From the UHGV virus genome UHGV-0268347: DNA of 27,718 nucleotides. One strand, written 5' to 3'. Positions within the stretch are counted from its first letter, which is position 1, and each line of letters begins with the position of its first letter. Source of the stretch: a virus. The translations under genes were made by a program, and so were the position numbers. The notes beneath the pieces were generated by a model. The model ran no database searches, was not told where the DNA came from, and saw only the letters and a list, made by a program, of their open reading frames with translations. Shown piece after piece: positions 2,724 through 23,169 of the stretch.

Positions 2724-2808
2724 ACCATTTTCACTATAGCAAAAACATTAACTTGCGTTTAAAATCAGCAAGTTAGTATTATCTTGTGTTTGTCCGTTTT
2801 ACTCATTT

Positions 2809-3855
2809 TTAATGCTCTGTCGCCAATCTGTCGCCATTGTAGGTCAACGAAGGTTGAGCCTTCCCTTTGTTTGTTACAATTTCATCAAAGATAGCTGGAT
2901 TATTATCTTTCAGTAATCTTGCTAGTATAATGATTTGCCCAGACGAGCCATCATCCTTGAATGAAAGGAAATTATCGGTAATATCAAGAATATCAATGGT
3001 AAATTTGAAGTAGGTTTCAATTGTATCGCCAAGTTCAATGCTGGACATGAAGTTAGTAATCATTTCATATCCATCAAAGTATAAAGTTGCATGTTCATTT
3101 AACTCCATGGGAGTTAGGCAAAGCATTCGATTAAGTTCGGATAAGTGTTTTTCTATTGAATGAAGAGATTGCATTTGACGGATTAAAACTTCGTCAAACT
3201 GAGAGCCACGATTAGATGAATTTATCTTCTCTAGGTTTTTTAGTATATCAACCCAGTGATTATTTACTTCACGTATGTATTCTTTATCTGTATTTTTAGG
3301 CCGTCCCTTCTCTGGTGAGCTATTTATGAAAATATATCTATATAGATGTATTGGGTAGTTAATTTTATAACTTATCTCTTTAGTACCATAATGACGTTCG
3401 CGTTTAATGGTTTTGTTAGGTAAATTGGTGAAATAATCAGTAACGAACTTTAGATGGCTATAGTAGCTATCAGATAGATTCTTTTGCTTGGTTTCCTCAA
3501 TTTGTCGGTTTGTTTGAACTGTGCGGTGTATGTTTGCTACGACAGCAACAAATGGTATGGACAAAGAAAGTAAGGCGATAGGAAGCTTGCTAATTGCAAT
3601 GAAATTATTAAAGCCCTCACTATCAAATTGAGGGGAATGTCCAAGCCAGGAAAATATACCAAAGTATATCGCTGAAAATACAGGAATCCTAAGTGATTGT
3701 TTAAATAAGTATTGACTTGTTAATGGCCTTTCATCCATGTTAAAGCCTTTTTTTGATACGCATAGATATAATTCAAGGCATATATATATAAAATATATTA
3801 TGATAAGTAAGTACGATATCCATGGGTATTGTTGGATATAGTTATTAACAAGCAC
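2809..3855 (-). CDS. Hypothetical multi-pass membrane protein (348 aa), AT-rich integrase-adjacent moron
   Basis: ORF between int and att; N-terminus has about three hydrophobic helices (WISYLLIIIYFIYICLELYL, IPVFSAIYFGIFSWLG, LPIALLSLSIPFVAVVANI), then a roughly 230-aa soluble domain; visibly AT-rich. GTG start at 3855 overlaps the int stop, preceded by GGAG; the next in-frame Met is residue 40. Confidence 0.55.
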   Translation of the reverse strand: MLVNNYIQQYPWISYLLIIIYFIYICLELYLCVSKKGFNMDERPLTSQYLFKQSLRIPVFSAIYFGIFSWLGHSPQFDSEGFNNFIAISKLPIALLSLSIPFVAVVANIHRTVQTNRQIEETKQKNLSDSYYSHLKFVTDYFTNLPNKTIKRERHYGTKEISYKINYPIHLYRYIFINSSPEKGRPKNTDKEYIREVNNHWVDILKNLEKINSSNRGSQFDEVLIRQMQSLHSIEKHLSELNRMLCLTPMELNEHATLYFDGYEMITNFMSSIELGDTIETYFKFTIDILDITDNFLSFKDDGSSGQIIILARLLKDNNPAIFDEIVTNKGKAQPSLTYNGDRLATEH

Positions 3856-4885
3856 TTTCTAATTTTCTCCATCCAAGGTTAGCAAGAGGATTTTTGGTTA
3901 CAGCATCTTCCAGATGGTCGGGAGCGAAGTGGGCGTAAATCATTGTCATTTTTATATCGACATGGCCCAGAATATCGCGCAGCACCAGTATGTTTCCGCC
4001 ATTCATCATAAAGTGACTTGCAAATGTATGTCGTAATACGTGTGTGCATTGCCCTTCTGGTAGCTCGATACCAGCTCGTTTAACCGCACGTTCAAAAGCT
4101 TTCCTACAAGGTGTAAATAATTTTCCCCTATTCTTAGGCAGTTCTTCATATAAATCCTTTGAAATAGGCACTGTTCGGTTTTTCTTTCCTTTAGTCTTGG
4201 TATAAGTGATACGGTATTTTGATACCTGATGACTCTGTAAGTTTTCGGCTTCGCTCCAGCGTGCGCCGGTGGCCAAGCATATTTTTGCAATCATCAGCAG
4301 ACTGGGGCTTTGAGAATCAGCACAGGCATCCAGCAGACGTTTAATTTCTTCCGGGGTCAGGAACGCCAATTCACCCTCAGCAATTTTAAATGTTGGCAGC
4401 CCAGCAAGCGGGTTGGGGGCTGACCAGTGGCCCAGCTTTTTCAGTGTACCAAAAACAGATGATAGGTTGCGCTGTTCAAGATTTACCGTGCGGGGCTTAA
4501 CGGGCGACATAAGCGTGCCATCTTCATTTCGTACTTCACCTTTTAACCGTGCTTCGCGGTATTTCGTAAACTCACCAGCTGTCAGTTCTGAGGCGATGGG
4601 ATCGCCTAGACCATTACAGATAATTCTAAGTTTCGCCATGAGGCGCTTGGGGTCTGCGAGTGTTTGACCATACAGGGAATACCACAGCTCAATTAATTCT
4701 GATAGATGTCGCCGATCTTCCTTTTCCCCTAGCCATGGTTTTTTGTTCACTTCTTCCATTGTGAAGCTTTCAAACGCAATGGCTTCGCCTTTGGTAGCAA
4801 ATTGCTTACGCACGCGCTTACCATTGCGTCCATTGGGATAGCACTCACACAACCATTTTCCGTTCGGCTGTTTTCTGATGGTCAT
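3845..4885 (-). CDS. int: Tyrosine integrase (P2/186-type)
   Basis: 346 aa; C-terminal catalytic region with HVLRHTFASHF and MIYAHF (R..H-x-x-R..Y pattern); positioned next to att and the repressor as in P2/186. Confidence 0.93.
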   Translation of the reverse strand: MTIRKQPNGKWLCECYPNGRNGKRVRKQFATKGEAIAFESFTMEEVNKKPWLGEKEDRRHLSELIELWYSLYGQTLADPKRLMAKLRIICNGLGDPIASELTAGEFTKYREARLKGEVRNEDGTLMSPVKPRTVNLEQRNLSSVFGTLKKLGHWSAPNPLAGLPTFKIAEGELAFLTPEEIKRLLDACADSQSPSLLMIAKICLATGARWSEAENLQSHQVSKYRITYTKTKGKKNRTVPISKDLYEELPKNRGKLFTPCRKAFERAVKRAGIELPEGQCTHVLRHTFASHFMMNGGNILVLRDILGHVDIKMTMIYAHFAPDHLEDAVTKNPLANLGWRKLESAC

Positions 4886-4888
4886 AAG

Positions 4889-5527
4889 TTAGAGGTTCTT
4901 GATTACTTTGACTGCACGTCCTACGACTTCCACATCATCTACAGAACATTCAAATGAAGTGTCATCTTGGTTAACTACTATTTTGTTTCCGGGTATGCGC
5001 GCAATTTTGACGATGCTTTTAACTCCGTCCATATCGACTAACCAGAAGCCATTACTGACTTGTTTAACAGACGTATCCACTACAAAGCTATCATTAGCTG
5101 TTTTAACAAATAAAGCGTTGGATGAGTCACCATCGAGCAGGCTGCTATCAAGAAGAATTTCATCACTTGGCTGCAGTTCGCCGTTCTTCAGTTCAACACG
5201 TTTGATGCTAGGAGCAACGATCTTAGAAAGTGGTCTTACAGTGACGGAAGGTTCATTTTTGAGATTTATTTCTTCGTTCTCACACGCATACATATCTCCT
5301 TGACCAGTAGCCAGCCATAGAAGGGAAGCTCCTGTTTCAAGGGCACATTGGATTACCCATTCGGCAGGAAAGCTATCCCTTAAGTATCTGTTAGCCATAG
5401 TGCTTTTTGATACTTCCAGATGTTCGCAGAGCTGCTGTCGTGAGCTGAAGTTGTAAGCCTTAATAAGCCTATTAATCGCATCGCGCCCACCACTATCATT
5501 CCCCGCCTTGATTAAACTCATAATCAA
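4889..5527 (-). CDS. cI: CI-type lysogeny repressor
   Basis: 212 aa, divergent or convergent with the apl-cII operon and immediately upstream of int; N-terminal region resembles the phage CI-repressor HTH domain (186-like). Confidence 0.75.
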   Translation of the reverse strand: MIMSLIKAGNDSGGRDAINRLIKAYNFSSRQQLCEHLEVSKSTMANRYLRDSFPAEWVIQCALETGASLLWLATGQGDMYACENEEINLKNEPSVTVRPLSKIVAPSIKRVELKNGELQPSDEILLDSSLLDGDSSNALFVKTANDSFVVDTSVKQVSNGFWLVDMDGVKSIVKIARIPGNKIVVNQDDTSFECSVDDVEVVGRAVKVIKNL

Positions 5528-5532
5528 ACCTC

Positions 5533-5561
5533 TTGACGTATATAAAAAGTGATCTTAATAT
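5533..5561 (+). promoter_or_regulatory. Sigma-70 promoter, probably the lytic pR driving apl-cII
   Basis: TTGACG (5533-5538), 17-bp spacer, TAATAT (5556-5561), pointing rightward about 75 bp upstream of apl. Confidence 0.6.
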
Positions 5562-5637
5562 CCATTCATGGTTTGAAAAGCAAAACCAAACCACATAAAA
5601 CAAGATAAAACGAAACCAAACTAAGAGATACTGCACT

Positions 5638-5880
5638 ATGAGTACTGATATTTCAATTCGTGTACCAAAAGAGATGGCAACGCCTGCTGAGTTCGCGGAA
5701 TGGGAAGGTATCTCCCGCGGCTCCGTGTATCAAAAAATTCACCATGGTCAGCTTGCTAAATACATGGTCAAGAAAGAAAAAAACAAAGGCCGCGTAAGCC
5801 TGCGTTATTTAATGTACAAAACAGATCAGGTCCGTGAATCCCTCGGTCATTCCAACTTCCGCGTCATTGTTGGTAAGTAA
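5638..5880 (+). CDS. apl: Apl/Cox-like excisionase and switch regulator
   Basis: 80-aa first gene of the rightward operon opposite cI, with an HTH-like segment (ATPAEFAEWEGISRGSVYQKIHHGQL); position equivalent to 186 apl / P2 cox. Confidence 0.6.
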   Translation: MSTDISIRVPKEMATPAEFAEWEGISRGSVYQKIHHGQLAKYMVKKEKNKGRVSLRYLMYKTDQVRESLGHSNFRVIVGK

Positions 5881-5912
5881 GTTCAATTATGAGAACTTTC
5901 TAAGGGGGTAGC

Positions 5913-6422
5913 ATGTTTGATTATAAGATTTCCAAACACCCGCATTTTGATGAAGCCTGTAGAGCTTTTGCACTTCGTCATAATATGGCGAAGCTGGCAG
6001 AACGTGCAGGAATGAATGTCCAGACTCTGCGAAACAAACTCAACCCAGATCAACCGCATCAGCTCAATGCGCCAGAAATCTGGCTGCTTACCGATCTGAC
6101 TGAAGATTCAACGCTGATAGATGGTTTTCTGGCACAGATTCACTGCCTGCCATGTGTACCGATTAATGAGGTAGCAAAAGAGAAACTGCCGCATTACGTC
6201 ATGAGTGCAACCGCAGAGATCGGGCGTATTGCTGCAGGTGCGGTATCTGGCAATGTAAAAACCAGTGCAGGTCGTCGTGATGCTATCAGCAGCATTAACT
6301 CTGTAACACGACTGATGGCGCTGGCTGCTGTTTCATTGCAGGCCCGTTTACAGGCTAACCCGGCGATGGCGAGTGCAGTTGATACCATGACTGGCCTTGG
6401 TGCTTCATTCGGTTTGCTGTGA
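5913..6422 (+). CDS. cII: CII-type lysogeny-establishment regulator (186 CII-like)
   Basis: 169 aa, MFDYKISKHPHFDEACRAFALRHNMAKLAERAGMNVQTLRNKLNP...; close resemblance to phage 186 CII as I recall it; good RBS (aaggggg). Confidence 0.85.
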   Translation: MFDYKISKHPHFDEACRAFALRHNMAKLAERAGMNVQTLRNKLNPDQPHQLNAPEIWLLTDLTEDSTLIDGFLAQIHCLPCVPINEVAKEKLPHYVMSATAEIGRIAAGAVSGNVKTSAGRRDAISSINSVTRLMALAAVSLQARLQANPAMASAVDTMTGLGASFGLL

Positions 6423-6429
6423 GGTGTTT

Positions 6430-6726
6430 ATGCTGACGAAAGAACCATCATTTGCATCGCTGCTGGTAAAACAAAGCCCGGCAATGCACTACGGTCACGG
6501 CTGGATCACGGGTGAGGATGGAAAACGCTGGCATCCATGTCATTCACAAGATGAATTGCTGTCTGAATTGACCACGAGGAAACGGAGAAAGTCCAAATGT
6601 ATGTGGCAGAAAGTGAAGTGGTTTATCAGTTTCGTTACAGAGGGGAGAGTTATTCAGTACCTGAAGATGATTTGCTCTGTTGCTATCCGTCATTGTCGGG
6701 CGATGGCAGTTACTTTTTCACGTTAA
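6430..6726 (+). CDS. Fil-like small protein (3' end uncertain)
   Basis: MLTKEPSFASLLVKQSPAMHYGHGWITGEDGKRWHPCHSQDELL...; occupies the position of 186 fil after cII. Its 3' part overlaps the next ORF in another frame, so the true stop is uncertain. Confidence 0.4.
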   Translation: MLTKEPSFASLLVKQSPAMHYGHGWITGEDGKRWHPCHSQDELLSELTTRKRRKSKCMWQKVKWFISFVTEGRVIQYLKMICSVAIRHCRAMAVTFSR

Positions 6727-7486: not shown

Positions 7487-7713
7487 TGGCTGATGCAATG
7501 GATCTCGTACAGCAGCGAGTTGAAGAAGAACGCCAACGTCATATCCGTGCTGCCCGTGCCAAAACGCCGGGCGTGTCCCGCGTGCTTTGCGTTGAGTGTG
7601 AAGCGCCAATTCCGCCAGCACGCCGCCGTGCCATTCCGGGTGTGCAGCTTTGCATTACCTGTCAGGAAATCGCAGAGCTGAAAGGCAAACATTACAACGG
7701 AGGTGCTGTATGA
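7486..7713 (+). CDS. TraR/DksA-type C4 zinc-finger protein
   Basis: 75 aa with CVECEAPIPPARRRAIPGVQLCITCQ (four Cys in C-x2-C...C-x2-C arrangement), as in the small zinc-finger ORFs of P2/186 early regions. Confidence 0.6.
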   Translation: MADAMDLVQQRVEEERQRHIRAARAKTPGVSRVLCVECEAPIPPARRRAIPGVQLCITCQEIAELKGKHYNGGAV

Positions 7714-8567
7714 GCACCATCCTGAAATGGGCGGGAAATAAAACCGCCATTATGTCCGAACTGAAAAAACACCTTCCTGCTGGCCCGCGACTGGTTGAAC
7801 CTTTCGCGGGTTCCTGTGCTGTGATGATGGAGACGGATTACCCCAGCTATCTGGTTGCGGATATTAATCCTGATTTAATCAACCTCTATAAAAAGGTTGC
7901 CTCTGATTGTGAATCGTTTATATCTCGCGCCAGAGTTTTATTTGAGATCGCAAACAGGGAGGTGGCTTATTACAACATAAGGCAGGAGTTTAATTACTCC
8001 ACTGAAATTACTGATTTCATGAAAGCGGTATATTTCCTGTATCTCAATCGTCACGGTTACCGTGGTTTATGTCGCTATAACAAGAGCGGGCATTTCAACA
8101 TTCCCTACGGTAATTATAAAAATCCGTATTTCCCTGAAAAAGAAATTCGCGCATTTGCAGAGAAAGCCCAGCGTGCAACGTTTATCTGCGCAAGCTTTGA
8201 TGAAACGCTGGCGATGCTGCAGGTGGGGGATGTGGTGTATTGCGATCCGCCGTATGACGGTACGTTTTCCGGCTATCACACTGATGGTTTCACTGAAGAT
8301 GACCAGTATCACCTGGCATCCGTTCTTGAACATCGGTCATCAGAAGGACATCCGGTCATTGTTTCTAACAGTGATACATCCCTGATCCGTTCGCTGTATC
8401 GCAATTTTACTCACCACTACATCAAGGCAAAACGCAGCATCGGTGTAGCAGCTGGTGAGAGTAAATCTGCAACAGAAATCATCGCTGTTTCCGGGCCGCG
8501 CTGCTGGGTGGGATTTGATCCTTCGCGTGGCGTGGATAGTTCTGCCGTGTACGGAGTGCGTGCATGA
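7710..8567 (+). CDS. dam: DNA adenine (N6) methyltransferase, Dam family
   Basis: 286 aa; N-terminal KWAGNK motif ([15 protein letters not shown]), [16 protein letters not shown], catalytic DPPY ([10 protein letters not shown]); start overlaps the upstream stop and the stop overlaps the A start. Confidence 0.9.
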
Positions 8568-11070: not shown

Positions 11071-11090
11071 TACTGTAAATATAAACAGTG
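11071..11090. promoter_or_regulatory. LexA (SOS) box
   Basis: taCTGTaaatataaACAGtg: CTGT-N8-ACAG with an AT-rich spacer, matching the LexA consensus, about 40 bp upstream of the next ORF. Confidence 0.7.
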
Positions 11091-11131
11091 GTTATGCATA
11101 CAGTATTGCGTGTGGTGTCATAGGAGGAAAG

Positions 11132-11320
11132 ATGCAGGACTATTTTTTGGAGTCTTTGAAGCTCCAGCGCATTGATTTTTTTCTTAAGCTTGTAGCGGCC
11201 AGTGAGTGTAGTGATGAAGAGAAGGGGCTGGCTCTGCAGTGGGTTTCTGAATTGACTGATGAACTCATGGCAAAAATCAGAACCCACGAATACAACCGCT
11301 CAATGGATGTCATCAGTTGA
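11132..11320 (+). CDS. Hypothetical SOS-operon protein (62 aa), tum-region ORF
   Basis: ATG with strong RBS (taggagg) directly downstream of the LexA box; no family recognised. Confidence 0.45.
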   Translation: MQDYFLESLKLQRIDFFLKLVAASECSDEEKGLALQWVSELTDELMAKIRTHEYNRSMDVIS

Positions 11321-11330
11321 GGTGACTTTT

Positions 11331-11564
11331 ATGCGCATTGAAATAATGATCGATAAAGAGCAGAAGATTAGCCAGTCTACCCTGGACTCCCTTGAATCCG
11401 AGCTTTACCGCAATCTGAGCCCCCTGTATCCCAAAGCGGTAATTCGTATCCGTAAAGGTAGCGCCAATGGTGTTGAACTGAGCGGGTTAAAACTGGATGA
11501 AGACAAAAAGCGAGTGATAGAAATCATGCAGCAGGTCTGGGAGGACGATAGTTGGTTACATTAG
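11331..11564 (+). CDS. DinI-family protein
   Basis: 77 aa, MRIEIMIDKEQKISQSTLDSLESELYRNLSPLYPKAVIRIRKG...IMQQVWEDDSW; resembles DinI in N-terminal MRIE and C-terminal acidic W motif; RBS gaggtga. Confidence 0.7.
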   Translation: MRIEIMIDKEQKISQSTLDSLESELYRNLSPLYPKAVIRIRKGSANGVELSGLKLDEDKKRVIEIMQQVWEDDSWLH

Positions 11565-11797: not shown

Positions 11798-12838
11798 TTG
11801 ATTAAAGTTGTTGATCTTTTTTGCGGAGCAGGTGGCTTAACTCATGGTTTGCAACGAGCAGGGTTGAATGTGGTTGCAGGCTATGATATTGATGCTACAT
11901 GTCGGTATGCTTATGAAAAAAATAACAATGCTTTATTTGTGCAAAAAAGCGTCACTGAACTTGATGAAGGGGAAATAAGTAAGCATTTTAAGGATGCATC
12001 AATTAAAGTTTTAGCTGGATGCGCTCCATGCCAGCCATTTTCTAGTTATACAAATACTGATAAATCAGTAAAAAAAATAAAAGACCATCGATGGTCTTTA
12101 TTGTATAGCTTTGCTAAGCAAATTCAATTATGTGCTCCAGATATAGTCACAATGGAGAATGTTCCAAGAGTTATTAACCACAAAGTTTTTAAAGATTTTG
12201 TGAAGACTTTAAAGTCTGAAGGGTATTTCGTTTGGTATGATACTGTATTTTGTCCTGATTATGGAATGGCCCAAAGCCGATCTAGATTAGTGTTATTAGC
12301 GTCCAAGTTTGGCGAGATAAAACTAATCCCGCCAACACATGATAAAAATAACTATAACACTGTACGTAGCGTTATTGGTGGATTGCCTCCTATTGATGCT
12401 GGATCGAGTGATGAGAAAGACAGACTTCATTATGCTGCATCTTTATCACCATTAAATATGGAGCGAATAAAACATTCTAAGCCAGGTGGAACATGGAAAG
12501 ATTGGCCTGAGTACTTACGGGCGTCATGCCACACCAAAGAATCAGGATCTTCTTACACTGCAGTTTATGGAAGAATGAGCTGGGATAAACTTGGCTCTAC
12601 AATTACAACACAATGTATAGGTTTTGGTAATGGTCGATTTGGTCATCCAGAACAAAATAGAGCTATTAGCCTAAGAGAGGCAGCTTTGCTTCAATCTTTT
12701 CCTCTAACTTATGAATTTTGGCCAGCTGAAGTAAAAGTTGAACTCAGGAATGTTGCACGACTGATTGGTAATGCTGTGCCGGTGAGGCTCGGTGAAGTTG
12801 TTGGGCAAAGTATTATTGAACACCTTAAAAGAAAATAA
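11798..12838 (+). CDS. DNA (cytosine-5) methyltransferase
   Basis: 346 aa with canonical C5-MTase motifs: I DLFCGAGG, IV GCAPCQPFS (catalytic Cys), VI ENV, VIII QSRSRLVLL, X GNAVPV. TTG start with RBS agggagga and extended -10 (tgcTACAAT) upstream; visibly AT-rich. Confidence 0.92.
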   Translation: MIKVVDLFCGAGGLTHGLQRAGLNVVAGYDIDATCRYAYEKNNNALFVQKSVTELDEGEISKHFKDASIKVLAGCAPCQPFSSYTNTDKSVKKIKDHRWSLLYSFAKQIQLCAPDIVTMENVPRVINHKVFKDFVKTLKSEGYFVWYDTVFCPDYGMAQSRSRLVLLASKFGEIKLIPPTHDKNNYNTVRSVIGGLPPIDAGSSDEKDRLHYAASLSPLNMERIKHSKPGGTWKDWPEYLRASCHTKESGSSYTAVYGRMSWDKLGSTITTQCIGFGNGRFGHPEQNRAISLREAALLQSFPLTYEFWPAEVKVELRNVARLIGNAVPVRLGEVVGQSIIEHLKRK

Positions 12839-12863
12839 AAAGGGCGAATCGCCCTTTTTTTTA
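12839..12863. terminator. Bidirectional rho-independent terminator shared by the convergent gene pair
   Basis: Stem agggcg-aat-cgccct flanked by an A-run on one side and a T-run on the other (aaaagggcgaatcgcccttttttttag). Confidence 0.75.
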
Positions 12864-14819
12864 GATACCATCAACAATTTTCATTATTCGTGCAGCATCA
12901 TCTTTTTTGCTCTGATACTCAGAGTATGCTTGTTTGGATTGTATTATAAGATCGCTATATGTTAATACCTTTGCATTTATAGATTGTAGCTGTGAGCGAA
13001 TATAATTATCTCCACTTCCGTCATAACCTTTGCCGACAAGAAAAACTACATCTATCGGTGGTATTTTTCCGGCAGGGCAACTATTTGGGTTGTTTCTAAA
13101 CCACTGCTCTGTGGCAACAACATATTTCCTTCCTTGACCTACTAATGCCAAAATATCAGGATATACATTTGGTCTTTTCATTTCAATGATGACGTGTTTA
13201 CCTGAAACGGTTTTGAAGGCTATATCAATTCTTGCACCACTTTCAGCGTCAGGGTTAACCTCTTTCAATTCCTTAGTCAGGGTTTGTTCCATAACTGTAG
13301 AACCAGTAACCCTCTCCCATGATGGGTCTAACAGCCATAAGTGGTCATAAAGATATTTTTGTACAGCCTTCTCTAACTCATTGTCATCGGTGATTTTTTG
13401 AAATTTCTCAATAACTTTCAATCGCTGTGATGTAATCTCATAAAAAAGGCTTGCCTCAATATCATTTACAGAAGCAAAAACCTCCCTAAAATGTTCTGAG
13501 TTTAAATCGCTAATTTTATCTAAAGCCTCAAGGTTATCTTTTATTCTTAATCTTTCAAAAGCAAGAACTGTATTTTTTAATACGGTTTTTTTTGCAATTT
13601 TCTGGTTTTCTTCATCTCCAGAAAATCTAAATGTGTTAATTTTGCCTAGTAATTTTTCGGCGCTGTTTCTTTCATGTTTTGACATGGAATCAAGCCAATC
13701 ACTTACAGCAGGTGAAGTTTTTTTAACCTCGCTAAGACCTTTTGCTCTTCGCCATTCATCCCATTCTTTATCTATTTTTTGTAATGTCCGTTCTAAGAAA
13801 CCCTTAATCACAGGATAGCGTGGATCATTCTGCTGTAATTTCTGTCGGGATGAGGTTGCCATGTCAGGTTTTTCATTTTCATCTAAAAAATCTGCGACAA
13901 GTTCCCCTACTAAATAATTTGTAAAAACCTTTGCGCTTCCGAATTCAAGCAATATATCTTCTTCAAATACCCGCCCATTTGATATTACGGTTATCGTGTT
14001 GTTAGATATTTCAGGGTCTTTTTTAAGTTGAGATGGTTTCTCAACACTTCCTACATAACCAGTAATGAAATAATCTACGCCTTCAAAAGATAATTTGTTA
14101 TCTAGAAGGCTTTTTTTAGAAAGATTTTTGCAAGATTTTACTCTTGCGGGATCTGAACTACCAAACTCCCATAAAAATTCAAGATCTGAAAGGAAGTCTC
14201 TATCTTCAGTAGTTATCTCAGTGTCATTGATTTTAACTATAAAATCATGACCAGGACCAATTATGCTAAACCGTCTGGCAAGTCTTTTTCTTAGATAGGT
14301 CTGAGTTCTATCAATGGATTTTTTTAAATCCATAAGAACTATTGTCGTCCCTATACTAAAGTCTTTCGGAACATTAATAATATTTGCAACATATTGTTTA
14401 CTGCTTTTTATACAGCGTTGCAATTCATCAACGTCAACTTCAAATCCCTGAGGCGTTTGGCCAATTTTGTGAGAAAATACTTGGATTTTGTTAGCTAATG
14501 AAAACATTGCTAATTTACCAATGCCTTTTCTACCCATGACTTGTCGTTGTAATCCATCACTTTTATACCTTCCACTTTCTCTTCTGGCATATCCAACTTT
14601 TAGGAATTTATTAATGATGTCATCTTTTGACATTCCATGTCCATCATCTTTAATTATTACCTTTTCATTTTCAACATCTAGAGTGATGTCTACATTTTTA
14701 GCATCCGCATCCCAAGCATTTGAGATTATTTCAGTTAGAACAGCTGGTGTGTTAGAGTAAAGACTCATACCTAAATGATTCAATACATTCAGGTCTATTT
14801 TAATTTCGAAATCGGACAT
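12861..14819 (-). CDS. GHKL-family ATPase fused to a C-terminal PD-(D/E)xK nuclease domain (652 aa); candidate restriction/defence effector
   Basis: N-terminus has Bergerat-fold motifs: N-box EIISNAWDADAKN, G1 IKDDGHGMS, G2 GRKGIGKLAMFS. C-terminus has GARIDIAF...GKHVIIEMKRP (acidic D532 and E546-x-K548 after hydrophobic strands). RBS aaggaaagga; visibly AT-rich. Confidence 0.85.
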   Translation of the reverse strand: MSDFEIKIDLNVLNHLGMSLYSNTPAVLTEIISNAWDADAKNVDITLDVENEKVIIKDDGHGMSKDDIINKFLKVGYARRESGRYKSDGLQRQVMGRKGIGKLAMFSLANKIQVFSHKIGQTPQGFEVDVDELQRCIKSSKQYVANIINVPKDFSIGTTIVLMDLKKSIDRTQTYLRKRLARRFSIIGPGHDFIVKINDTEITTEDRDFLSDLEFLWEFGSSDPARVKSCKNLSKKSLLDNKLSFEGVDYFITGYVGSVEKPSQLKKDPEISNNTITVISNGRVFEEDILLEFGSAKVFTNYLVGELVADFLDENEKPDMATSSRQKLQQNDPRYPVIKGFLERTLQKIDKEWDEWRRAKGLSEVKKTSPAVSDWLDSMSKHERNSAEKLLGKINTFRFSGDEENQKIAKKTVLKNTVLAFERLRIKDNLEALDKISDLNSEHFREVFASVNDIEASLFYEITSQRLKVIEKFQKITDDNELEKAVQKYLYDHLWLLDPSWERVTGSTVMEQTLTKELKEVNPDAESGARIDIAFKTVSGKHVIIEMKRPNVYPDILALVGQGRKYVVATEQWFRNNPNSCPAGKIPPIDVVFLVGKGYDGSGDNYIRSQLQSINAKVLTYSDLIIQSKQAYSEYQSKKDDAARIMKIVDGI

Positions 14820-23036: not shown

Positions 23037-23169
23037 CGGTGAGCTGGACGCGTTGCTGGATGAAACGGAGGCCGCCTGGGCGGTCTGTGCAGACAAAGTG
23101 GACATGATTATTGCGTGTCAGGAGCGAAACAGTGAACAAACCACAATCCCTGCGCCACGCCCTCAATAA
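22879..23169 (+). CDS. lysC: LysC-like outer-membrane lipoprotein spanin (Rz1-like), overlapping lysB
   Basis: 96 aa with signal peptide and lipobox (LLTLSGC), encoded in another frame overlapping the 3' end of lysB. Confidence 0.5.
   Translation: MRTRIYAAGLILLCLLTLSGCGNVRHSPEVQLTVSGCPRVTPCRLEQATPRTNGELDALLDETEAAWAVCADKVDMIIACQERNSEQTTIPAPRPQ

Follow-up and report, generated by a model that had tools for sequence, protein, structure and literature searches.

A probable 186-type immunity switch with two facing promoters in a Fels-2-like prophage

The region between cI and apl in the virus genome UHGV-0268347 very probably serves a Fels-2-like temperate phage of the 186 type as its immunity switch, in which two promoters would face each other about 54 bp apart. 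As such it is an ordinary copy of the 186-type switch, which is already known, in a very common prophage family. Its base-level map, comprising the predicted pR and pL, the Apl-type repeats, pE with its CII site and the tum-like operon, is usable for Fels-2-type prophages of Klebsiella, Salmonella, Enterobacter and their relatives. We analysed the whole stretch of DNA (27,718 nucleotides, hereafter the window) and compared it with 18 genomic loci encoding cI relatives, 80 viral contigs whose Apl is identical to that of the window, and 160 contigs from the 186 and PsP3 CI clades.

Prophage identity and switch genes

Over positions 4800-6500 the window shares 99% identity with Klebsiella phage Kp4865-2; the figure for Salmonella phage Fels-2 is 89%. 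A match search with this interval found the related region in about 110 phage records. The window and Fels-2 have almost the same sequence throughout the switch region (5480-5720), and a single base separates their cI-apl intergenic regions. The attL core has the same sequence as the Fels-2 att core, which lies in ssrA, the integration site of that phage (PMC3448106); tRNA/tmRNA calling at attL returned nothing, and ssrA is present there as a 3' fragment only. Its sequence identifies the window as a Fels-2-like prophage (186-type, Peduoviridae) whose insertion site is the 3' end of ssrA. Its genes and sites are arranged as follows.

2700-2726: attL core (ssrA 3' end)
between attL and int, minus strand: 348-aa ORF of unknown function
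3845-4885, minus strand: int
4889..5521, minus strand: cI, 186-type immunity repressor, 210 aa, with an alternative TTG start at 5527
5530..5535, minus strand: cI Shine-Dalgarno AAGAGG, at 7-nt spacing from the ATG at 5521 and overlapping the pR -35 hexamer
5638..5880, plus strand: apl, Cox/Apl-type excisionase and repressor by homology, 80 aa
5913-6422, rightward: cII
right of cII: DUF5347, DUF2732 and DksA-like genes
7710-8567: Dam-like methyltransferase (D12-class adenine methyltransferase), in the early operon to the right of the DksA-like gene
right of the Dam-like gene and left of the tum-like operon: replication gene A
11073..11564, plus strand: split tum-like SOS operon, consisting of the LexA box CTGTAAATATAAACAG, then a small ORF, then a DinI-like ORF
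right of the tum-like operon: cargo and late genes

Fels-2 (NC_010463; cI is STM2738, apl is STM2737 and cII is STM2736), which has been classed as carrying a 186-type switch (PMC3448106), shares the gene order, the ssrA att core and the split tum/dinI arrangement with the window. The window differs from it in the extra 348-aa ORF between attL and int and in its C5-methylase/restriction-like cargo, which is located downstream of the replication gene.

The leftward gene encodes a protein with the Pfam domains Phage_CI_repr (PF07022, 8e-33) and Phage_CI_C (PF16452, 1e-40). The alignment of this protein with 186 CI extends along its entire length (32% identity, 193 aligned positions, E 2e-36); the Pfam search found no S24 peptidase domain in CI. 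The product of the rightward gene is 30% identical to 186 Apl from end to end (E 4e-13) and matches both the PHROG family phrog_575, 'Cox-like excisionase and repressor' (5e-28), and the PHROG excisionase family, while a Pfam search of it gave no match. The gene 3' of apl is cII (Phage_CP76, PF06892, 2.5e-43). The names cI and apl, which the original prediction had given to the leftward and the rightward gene, are therefore well founded, with full-length homology to 186 CI and Apl and with PHROG families that agree.

The ATG at 5521 appears the likelier start of cI, compared with the TTG at 5527, because AAGAGG precedes it at 7-nt spacing and because the resulting 210-aa product is the one annotated in Fels-2. 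Counted from this ATG, the gap between cI and apl extends over 5522-5637 and measures 116 bp, versus 129 bp in 186. The distance of about 110 bp proposed earlier is exact when measured from the TTG at 5527, the start of the mechanically called ORF, and grows to 116 bp with the likelier ATG.

The putative rightward promoter

The putative pR consists of three elements, which are listed below together with the corresponding entries of the 186 record.

5533..5538, plus strand: pR -35 hexamer TTGACG, from promoter scan, conservation and a position homologous to 186 pR
5539..5555, plus strand: pR spacer, 17 nt, whose first 12 nt differ from one immunity-module type to another
5556..5561, plus strand: pR -10 hexamer TAATAT, from promoter scan and conservation
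186 (NC_001317): cI start 23011, pR -35 23026, pR -10 23049
186 (NC_001317): seven Apl sites 23056-23123, pL -10 23131-23136, apl ATG 23141, pL -35 23154-23159
186 (NC_001317): FR operator at the apl stop, CII site at the start of cII

The two hexamers agree with the consensus at 5/6 and 4/6 positions (9/12 overall) and are separated by an ideal spacer; 186 pR, TTTACT-17-TATATT, also reaches 9/12. A near-consensus -35/-10 pair had been predicted at 5533-5561. The hexamers are found exactly there, with a 17-nt spacer, although the term is slightly generous for a -10 that matches at only four positions of six. Promoter prediction on both strands gave pR, on the plus strand, as the sole site above threshold between 4500 and 7000 (2.5 kb), and a relaxed scan of the minus strand gave the pL candidate described below. 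Shuffled sequences yielded 4.4 +/- 2.4 sites. As a pattern match, pR is within chance expectation, and the scan alone proves nothing. We judge pR to be real because of its position and its conservation, and not because of its scan score.

As to position, the -35 hexamer starts 12 bp from the cI ATG, compared with 15 bp in 186, and the distance from the -35 to the apl ATG is kept between 105 and 109 bp across module types. As to conservation, we examined about 60 distinct related switch sequences representing at least 8 unrelated cI/pR module types: the -35 is TTGAC[GA] with one exception (TTTACG), the spacer is 17 nt long in all, and the -10 reads TAnnnT, again with a single exception. Another three switch sequences fell outside the filter, two with a single change in the -35 and one with the -10 TGTGTT. 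These patterns are strong evidence, on the sequence side, that pR is a genuine and positionally constrained promoter. Its transcription start is predicted near 5568, because the +1 of 186 pR lies 7 nt after the -10 hexamer (PMC6593788).

The predicted leftward promoter

The lytic and lysogenic promoters of 186 were described in the original prediction as facing and interfering with each other, in keeping with the literature: 186 pR and pL are convergent, and interference at pL amounts to about 5.6-fold (PMC6593788). By the same reasoning the leftward promoter of the window was expected inside or near the 5' end of apl, and it is there that the relaxed minus-strand scan and the 186 offset place the best candidate, TTGAAA-17-CAGTAT.

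5651..5656, minus strand: candidate pL -35 hexamer TTGAAA, inside apl codons 5-7
5628..5633, minus strand: candidate pL -10 hexamer CAGTAT

With respect to the apl ATG, the two hexamers occupy offsets +13..+18 and -10..-5, identical to those of the mapped 186 pL, and they enclose a 17-nt spacer. The candidate scores only 8/12 (3/6 in the -10), below the threshold of the original scan; the hexamers of 186 pL, TTGCGA and CATGAT, are as weak. Conservation was assessed on 39 distinct apl sequences. The pL -10 hexamer is nearly invariant, with 3 of the 39 differing, at one position, and the same is true of the 16 bases immediately upstream of the apl ATG, where the apl Shine-Dalgarno and the pL -10 are located. 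Within the gene, third positions of codons 4-13 (5647..5676) have a minor-allele sum of 5. Codons 14-80 have a mean of 7.2 per codon, their lowest non-overlapping 10-codon stretch sums to 31, and none of 20000 permutations reached 5. Codons 2-3, within the pL spacer, vary freely. The near-absence of synonymous variation in codons 4-13 thus indicates an overlapping element at the DNA level, which would be the pL -35 with its upstream region. Alternatively, low synonymous variation at the 5' end of a gene could reflect a constraint on translation initiation.

The transcription start of pL is predicted near 5622. By the 186 spacing rules, the starts of pR and pL would then be about 54 bp apart, compared with 62-64 bp in 186 (PMC6593788). 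In the literature on Fels-2-type phages we found no transcript, footprint or reporter data, and the Fels-2 record carries no experimentally mapped promoters or operators.

The layout of the two promoters can also be read in other ways. The cI maintenance promoter could overlap pR on the minus strand, in a compact, lambda-like arrangement, instead of lying inside apl. The sequence that would serve is the following.

5579 to 5574, 16 nt, 5557 to 5552, minus strand: alternative cI promoter, -35 TTTTCA, spacer, -10 TAAGAT, whose transcript would start near 5545 and have a 24-nt leader containing the cI Shine-Dalgarno

This sequence also scores 8/12. Its -10 is the complement of the conserved GATCnTA, so that TA[A/C/T]GAT occurs in every module type and the invariant GATC of the pR spacer (see below) would be explained. 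Its -35, however, falls in a type-specific dyad region and, in a by-eye reading, shows no conservation in type C or type D; the mapped switch of 186 lacks a promoter of this kind; and neither the constraint on apl codons 4-13 nor the exact match of TTGAAA-17-CAGTAT to the 186 pL offsets would be accounted for. We therefore regard an overlapping cI promoter as highly improbable. A P2-type C/Cox or a lambda-type CI/Cro switch deserves practically no weight at all. These types have in common with the 186 type a leftward repressor gene, a rightward first lytic gene and a short gap, but the repressor of the window carries the 186-specific Phage_CI_C domain and is 210 aa long, whereas the P2 C repressor has roughly 99 aa. 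Moreover, a 186-type cII lies 3' of apl, and the mere 12 bp between the cI ATG and the pR -35 leave no room for a back-to-back promoter. The P2 C/Cox switch (Pe/Pc) does resemble that of the window in its face-to-face promoters 40-60 bp apart and in a Cox/Apl-family protein that binds direct repeats located at att as well as between the promoters (PMC7498355, PMC3448106); it differs in a C repressor of unrelated architecture, in having no cII/pE, and in not being SOS-inducible (PMC3448106, PMC5322425). The facing pR and pL of a 186-type switch are thus the reading that we retain below.

Phased repeats as candidate Apl sites

Between the two promoters we found a run of short direct repeats, and a second array lies beside attL.

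5572..5631, plus strand: six 10-bp-phased blocks ending AAAC, AAGC or ATAC, candidate Apl operators and also phased A-tracts
blocks 1-3, in order from 5572: TTTGAAAAGC / AAAACCAAAC / CACATAAAAC
blocks 4-6, in order to 5631: AAGATAAAAC / GAAACCAAAC / TAAGAGATAC
2757..2805, minus strand: candidate Apl (excisionase) array of 10-bp-phased TAAAAC, AAACAC and TAATAC blocks beside attL, inverted with respect to the switch array

Four consecutive AAAC at exact 10-bp spacing were obtained in none of 20000 mononucleotide shuffles and in a fraction of 5e-5 of 20000 first-order Markov simulations. The apl-proximal blocks are common to all module types that carry the Apl of the window, despite their different cI, and phages with a different Apl have a different sequence at these positions. 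When the window was searched with a matrix built from the six switch blocks, the three-block array at 2776-2805 (minus strand) ranked third, not first, among the non-self positions of the 27.7 kb. This array lies 50-80 bp from the att core, and weaker blocks continue leftward from it to 2757. The Apl sites of 186, spaced 10-11 bp apart, number seven in the pR-pL interval and five, inverted, beside att (PMC7498355). The phased AAAC repeats in the switch and beside attL are hence put forward as candidate Apl operators. The repeat unit itself is (A/T)AAAC in the window and TGGCAA in 186, and the switch arrays hold six and seven repeats, respectively. We note that the distance between promoter starts (about 54 bp versus 62-64 bp) differs by one helical turn, which corresponds to the six versus seven phased repeats.

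Candidate CI operators around pR

CI of 186 forms a wheel oligomer and binds three operators at pR (PMC3675496), which are spaced by two helical turns. The sequences that could fulfil this function in the window are the following.

5547-5553, in the pR spacer: AAGTGAT half-site, candidate seat of the central CI operator
5569..5593, over the pR start: dyad TGGTTTG-N11-CAAACCA, candidate for a downstream CI operator, or else a hairpin at the 5' end of the pR mRNA

Across the switches compared, type-specific blocks are located upstream of the -35, within the spacer and after the -10. In the 186 clade, the pR spacer contains a dyad whose arms covary (ATCTC..GAGAT, ACTTC..GAAGT, ATTCC..GGAAT, ACTCC..GGAGT), a pattern that appears to mark the central operator. 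Spacer dyads are present in module types B, C and D as well; in type A, that of the window, the right half AAGTGAT is the only part found, with no evident counterpart of the clear 186-clade dyad. On sequence comparison, the pR spacer is the likely seat of the central CI operator. Most module types have, in addition, a dyad of different sequence starting 5-10 nt after the -10 hexamer, and in the other types the dyads are, by a by-eye reading of the aligned sequences, about 31 bp and not 21 bp apart. The motifs AAGTGAT, CAAACC/GGTTTG and TTGATTA/TAATCAA were considered as CI operators and proved too inconsistent to assign. In 186 itself, the two outer pR operators are unlike the central dyad.

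The dyad at 5569-5593 may instead act as RNA, forming a hairpin at the 5' end of the apl-cII mRNA that stabilises the transcript. RNA folding gives it a 7-bp stem, placed at the expected 5' end of the transcript (-8.2 kcal/mol, z -2.7), and most module types keep the pairing, not the sequence, 5-10 nt past the -10 hexamer. Against this, the third CI operator of 186 and the CI footprint cover the equivalent position (186 record; PMC3675496), and different cI alleles come with different dyads, which is the behaviour expected of operators. Furthermore, their loops range from 1 to 13 nt, so that some of them (TCAAT-T-ATTGA in type C) are incapable of forming a hairpin loop, and the dyad has no Rfam match; in fact, the Rfam search found no known RNA family anywhere within 5300-6100. 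For this one element, a role as an RNA hairpin is unlikely, and we continue to treat the dyad as a candidate CI operator. The recognition helix of CI, SKSTMANR[Y/N/V/M]LRD, is almost identical in types A-E, though the DNA flanking pR differs greatly among them; the basis of immunity specificity is therefore not evident from the helix.

The apl-cII junction and the tum-like SOS operon

Further sites with counterparts in 186 were recognised at the end of apl and at the start of cII.

5879..5898, at the apl stop codon: dyad AAGTTC-N8-GAACTT, positional homologue of the 186 FR operator
5887-5892, minus strand: CATAAT, predicted pE -10, inside this dyad and at the position of the 186 pE -10
5913..5939, start of cII: candidate CII site ATGTTTG-N13-CAAACAC, which aligns with the annotated 186 CII site activating pE

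The 186 FR operator, ATTCAC-N5-GTGAAT, aligns with the dyad at the apl stop. The latter is conserved in types A-D, which are all the module types examined for it, and does not change with the cI type; with a sequence constant across these types, it was rejected as an immunity-specific CI site. The comparison of this dyad with the cI type cannot decide whether CI binds there, because the types hardly differ in their CI recognition helix. In 186, the distal CI sites FL and FR lie about 300 bp on either side; in the window, we found the dyad at the FR position only. A search within cI for an FL-like copy of AAGTTC-N8-GAACTT, allowing up to 3 mismatches, found none, and the total over the window was at chance level. 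A single exact ATCACTT occurs at 5162-5168.

The LexA box of the tum-like operon, at 11073-11088, is perfect, and the split tum operons of Fels-2 and PsP3 have the same arrangement (PMC3121763). The operon is thus likely, from its organisation, to provide the input that inactivates CI.

Proposed working of the switch

We infer promoter activity, the start sites, the bases contacted by CI, the interference and a wheel-type oligomer for this phage, and from these the following scheme can be drawn. pR would drive apl, cII and the early lytic operon rightward, and the weaker pL would drive cI and int leftward with a transcript that reads through pR. In the lytic state, polymerases coming from pR would displace the polymerase waiting at pL, so that little CI is made. 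In a lysogen, CI, with its 186-type C-terminal oligomerisation domain, would shut pR by binding to type-specific sequences that lie within its spacer and across its start; with pR shut, the interference on pL would be relieved and CI would maintain its own synthesis. Apl, the first product of pR, may bind the six AAAC repeats cooperatively and damp both promoters, and its binding to the array on the attL side may direct excision. For the establishment of lysogeny, CII would act at the ATGTTTG...CAAACAC site and fire the leftward pE, whose -10 is predicted in the apl-stop dyad. Finally, SOS induction would proceed via the LexA-controlled tum-like antirepressor at 11073-11564 rather than by self-cleavage of CI.

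The scheme is built on likenesses between the window and 186. Both have the convergent geometry with identical pL offsets, a pR that abuts the start of cI, and phased direct repeats which lie between the promoters and, inverted, beside att. They also share the apl-stop dyad overlapping the (here predicted) pE -10, the CII site at the start of cII, and the LexA-controlled antirepressor. On the other hand, the CI and Apl proteins of the two phages are only 30-32% identical, the spacer dyad of the 186 clade has no evident counterpart in type A, and no FL-like site was found in the window.

GATC in the pR spacer and exchange of cI/pR modules

The GATC at 5551-5554 occupies spacer positions 13-16 (about -17 to -14). 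All Fels-2-like switches examined have it without variation, although the other 12 spacer bases were replaced many times; it is the only element of the region that could lead somewhere new. In most PsP3-type switches, GATC is found at spacer positions 14-17, adjoining the -10, and some lineages of the PsP3 clade have GATT or GAAC instead. The CI of PsP3-type switches has DNA-reading helices different from those of the Fels-2-like CI, and PsP3 CI itself contains two different helix-turn-helix domains. Among the 186-clade sequences with a called promoter, none of 59 distinct ones has GATC in the pR spacer.

The GATC may be the conserved outer end of the central CI half-site, and the 186 half-site also ends in GAT. 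Alternatively, it may be kept as the complement of the leftward, -10-like TAnGAT. We consider quite unlikely a further interpretation, in which the site would be a Dam-methylation checkpoint that places an epigenetic lock on the lysis-lysogeny decision. CI bound in the lysogen would then keep the GATC unmethylated and, after the loss of CI, either the Dam of the host or the Dam-like enzyme of the phage (7710-8567) would methylate it and alter the strength of pR or the re-binding of CI. PsP3 has the GATC, yet no enzyme with a DPPY motif was found in the 8 kb examined, which is a weak test as the hosts have Dam anyway. A literature search on Dam or GATC in connection with Fels-2 or 186-type switches found nothing relevant, the one paper on Dam and a prophage dealing with ST64B.

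Lastly, in the 80 contigs with identical Apl, identical apl genes are joined to at least five unrelated cI/pR modules. Left of about 5595-5625 these contigs abruptly cease to resemble one another, and a mosaic (recombination) joint is therefore located inside the pR-pL interval.

Exchange of cI/pR Modules in the Switch

Among the 80 viral contigs whose Apl is 100% identical to that of the window (L021-L100), at least five unrelated cI/pR modules were found. Comparison of these contigs with the window places the recombination joint at approximately 5595-5625, that is, within the phased repeats and inside the interval between pR and the inferred pL.

One element is retained regardless of the module present. 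Positions 13-16 of the pR spacer read GATC (5551-5554 in the window), and this tetranucleotide is invariant across all Fels-2-like switches. In most PsP3-type switches, it adjoins the -10 hexamer. The comparison covered L003-L100, which include the contigs with identical Apl, and L184-L263. The 186-clade switch sequences compared have no GATC in the pR spacer. The GATC may mark where a CI half-site ends, serve as a Dam site, or belong to TAnGAT, a leftward sequence resembling a -10 hexamer.

CI Operators and Possible CI Contacts

In the 186-like phages, the dyad of the pR spacer displays clear arm-to-arm covariation between lineages (186-clade switch regions, L104-L183). On comparative grounds, this supports the central operator of 186 CI.

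In the window, two copies of AAGAGAT, 46 bp apart, flank the inferred pL (5623-5629 and 5669-5675). Both differ at one base from AAGTGAT, the half-site in the spacer, and share the ending GAGAT with the 186 half-site; the second copy falls in the stretch of apl with almost no synonymous change. This pair may correspond to the weak contacts that CI is described as making "over pL" in 186.

Early Operon, SOS Operon, and Cargo

Rightward of the switch, the following genes were identified:

7710-8567, + strand: D12-class N6-adenine DNA methyltransferase, Dam-like (Pfam, 3.5e-76)
11073-11564, + strand: perfect LexA box (CTGTAAATATAAACAG), then a small ORF (phrog_698), then a DinI-like ORF
11798-12838, + strand: C5-cytosine DNA methylase
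12861-14819, - strand: protein of 652 aa that carries a GHKL-type ATPase domain and matches type II restriction enzyme models

The Dam-like gene belongs to the rightward early operon and precedes replication gene A. The annotated early region of 186 contains no methyltransferase. The LexA box and the two ORFs that follow it form a tum-like SOS operon, split as has been reported in Fels-2 and PsP3. After the replication region, the C5-cytosine methylase and the GHKL protein form a convergent cargo pair (11798-14819), which is probably a prophage-borne restriction-modification system.

The attL Side

Two further loci lie on either side of attL:

2809-3855, - strand: 348-aa ORF with a hydrophobic N-terminus, between attL and int
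435-1971, + strand: RnlA-type (RNase LS) toxin gene followed by a small overlapping ORF, left of attL and outside the prophage

The 348-aa ORF, whose position is devoid of an ORF in Fels-2, matches phrog_17460 (unknown function) and, weakly (E 2e-4), the defence model "2TM effector"; no Pfam domain was found in it. A role as a moron or in defence is possible. Adjoining the att-side repeat array, a tandem of CTGTCGCCAAT and CTGTCGCCATT at 2817-2838 resembles the 186-type Int arm-site consensus tgccGCCActt. Outside the prophage, the small ORF overlapping the RnlA-type gene could encode the antitoxin to that toxin.
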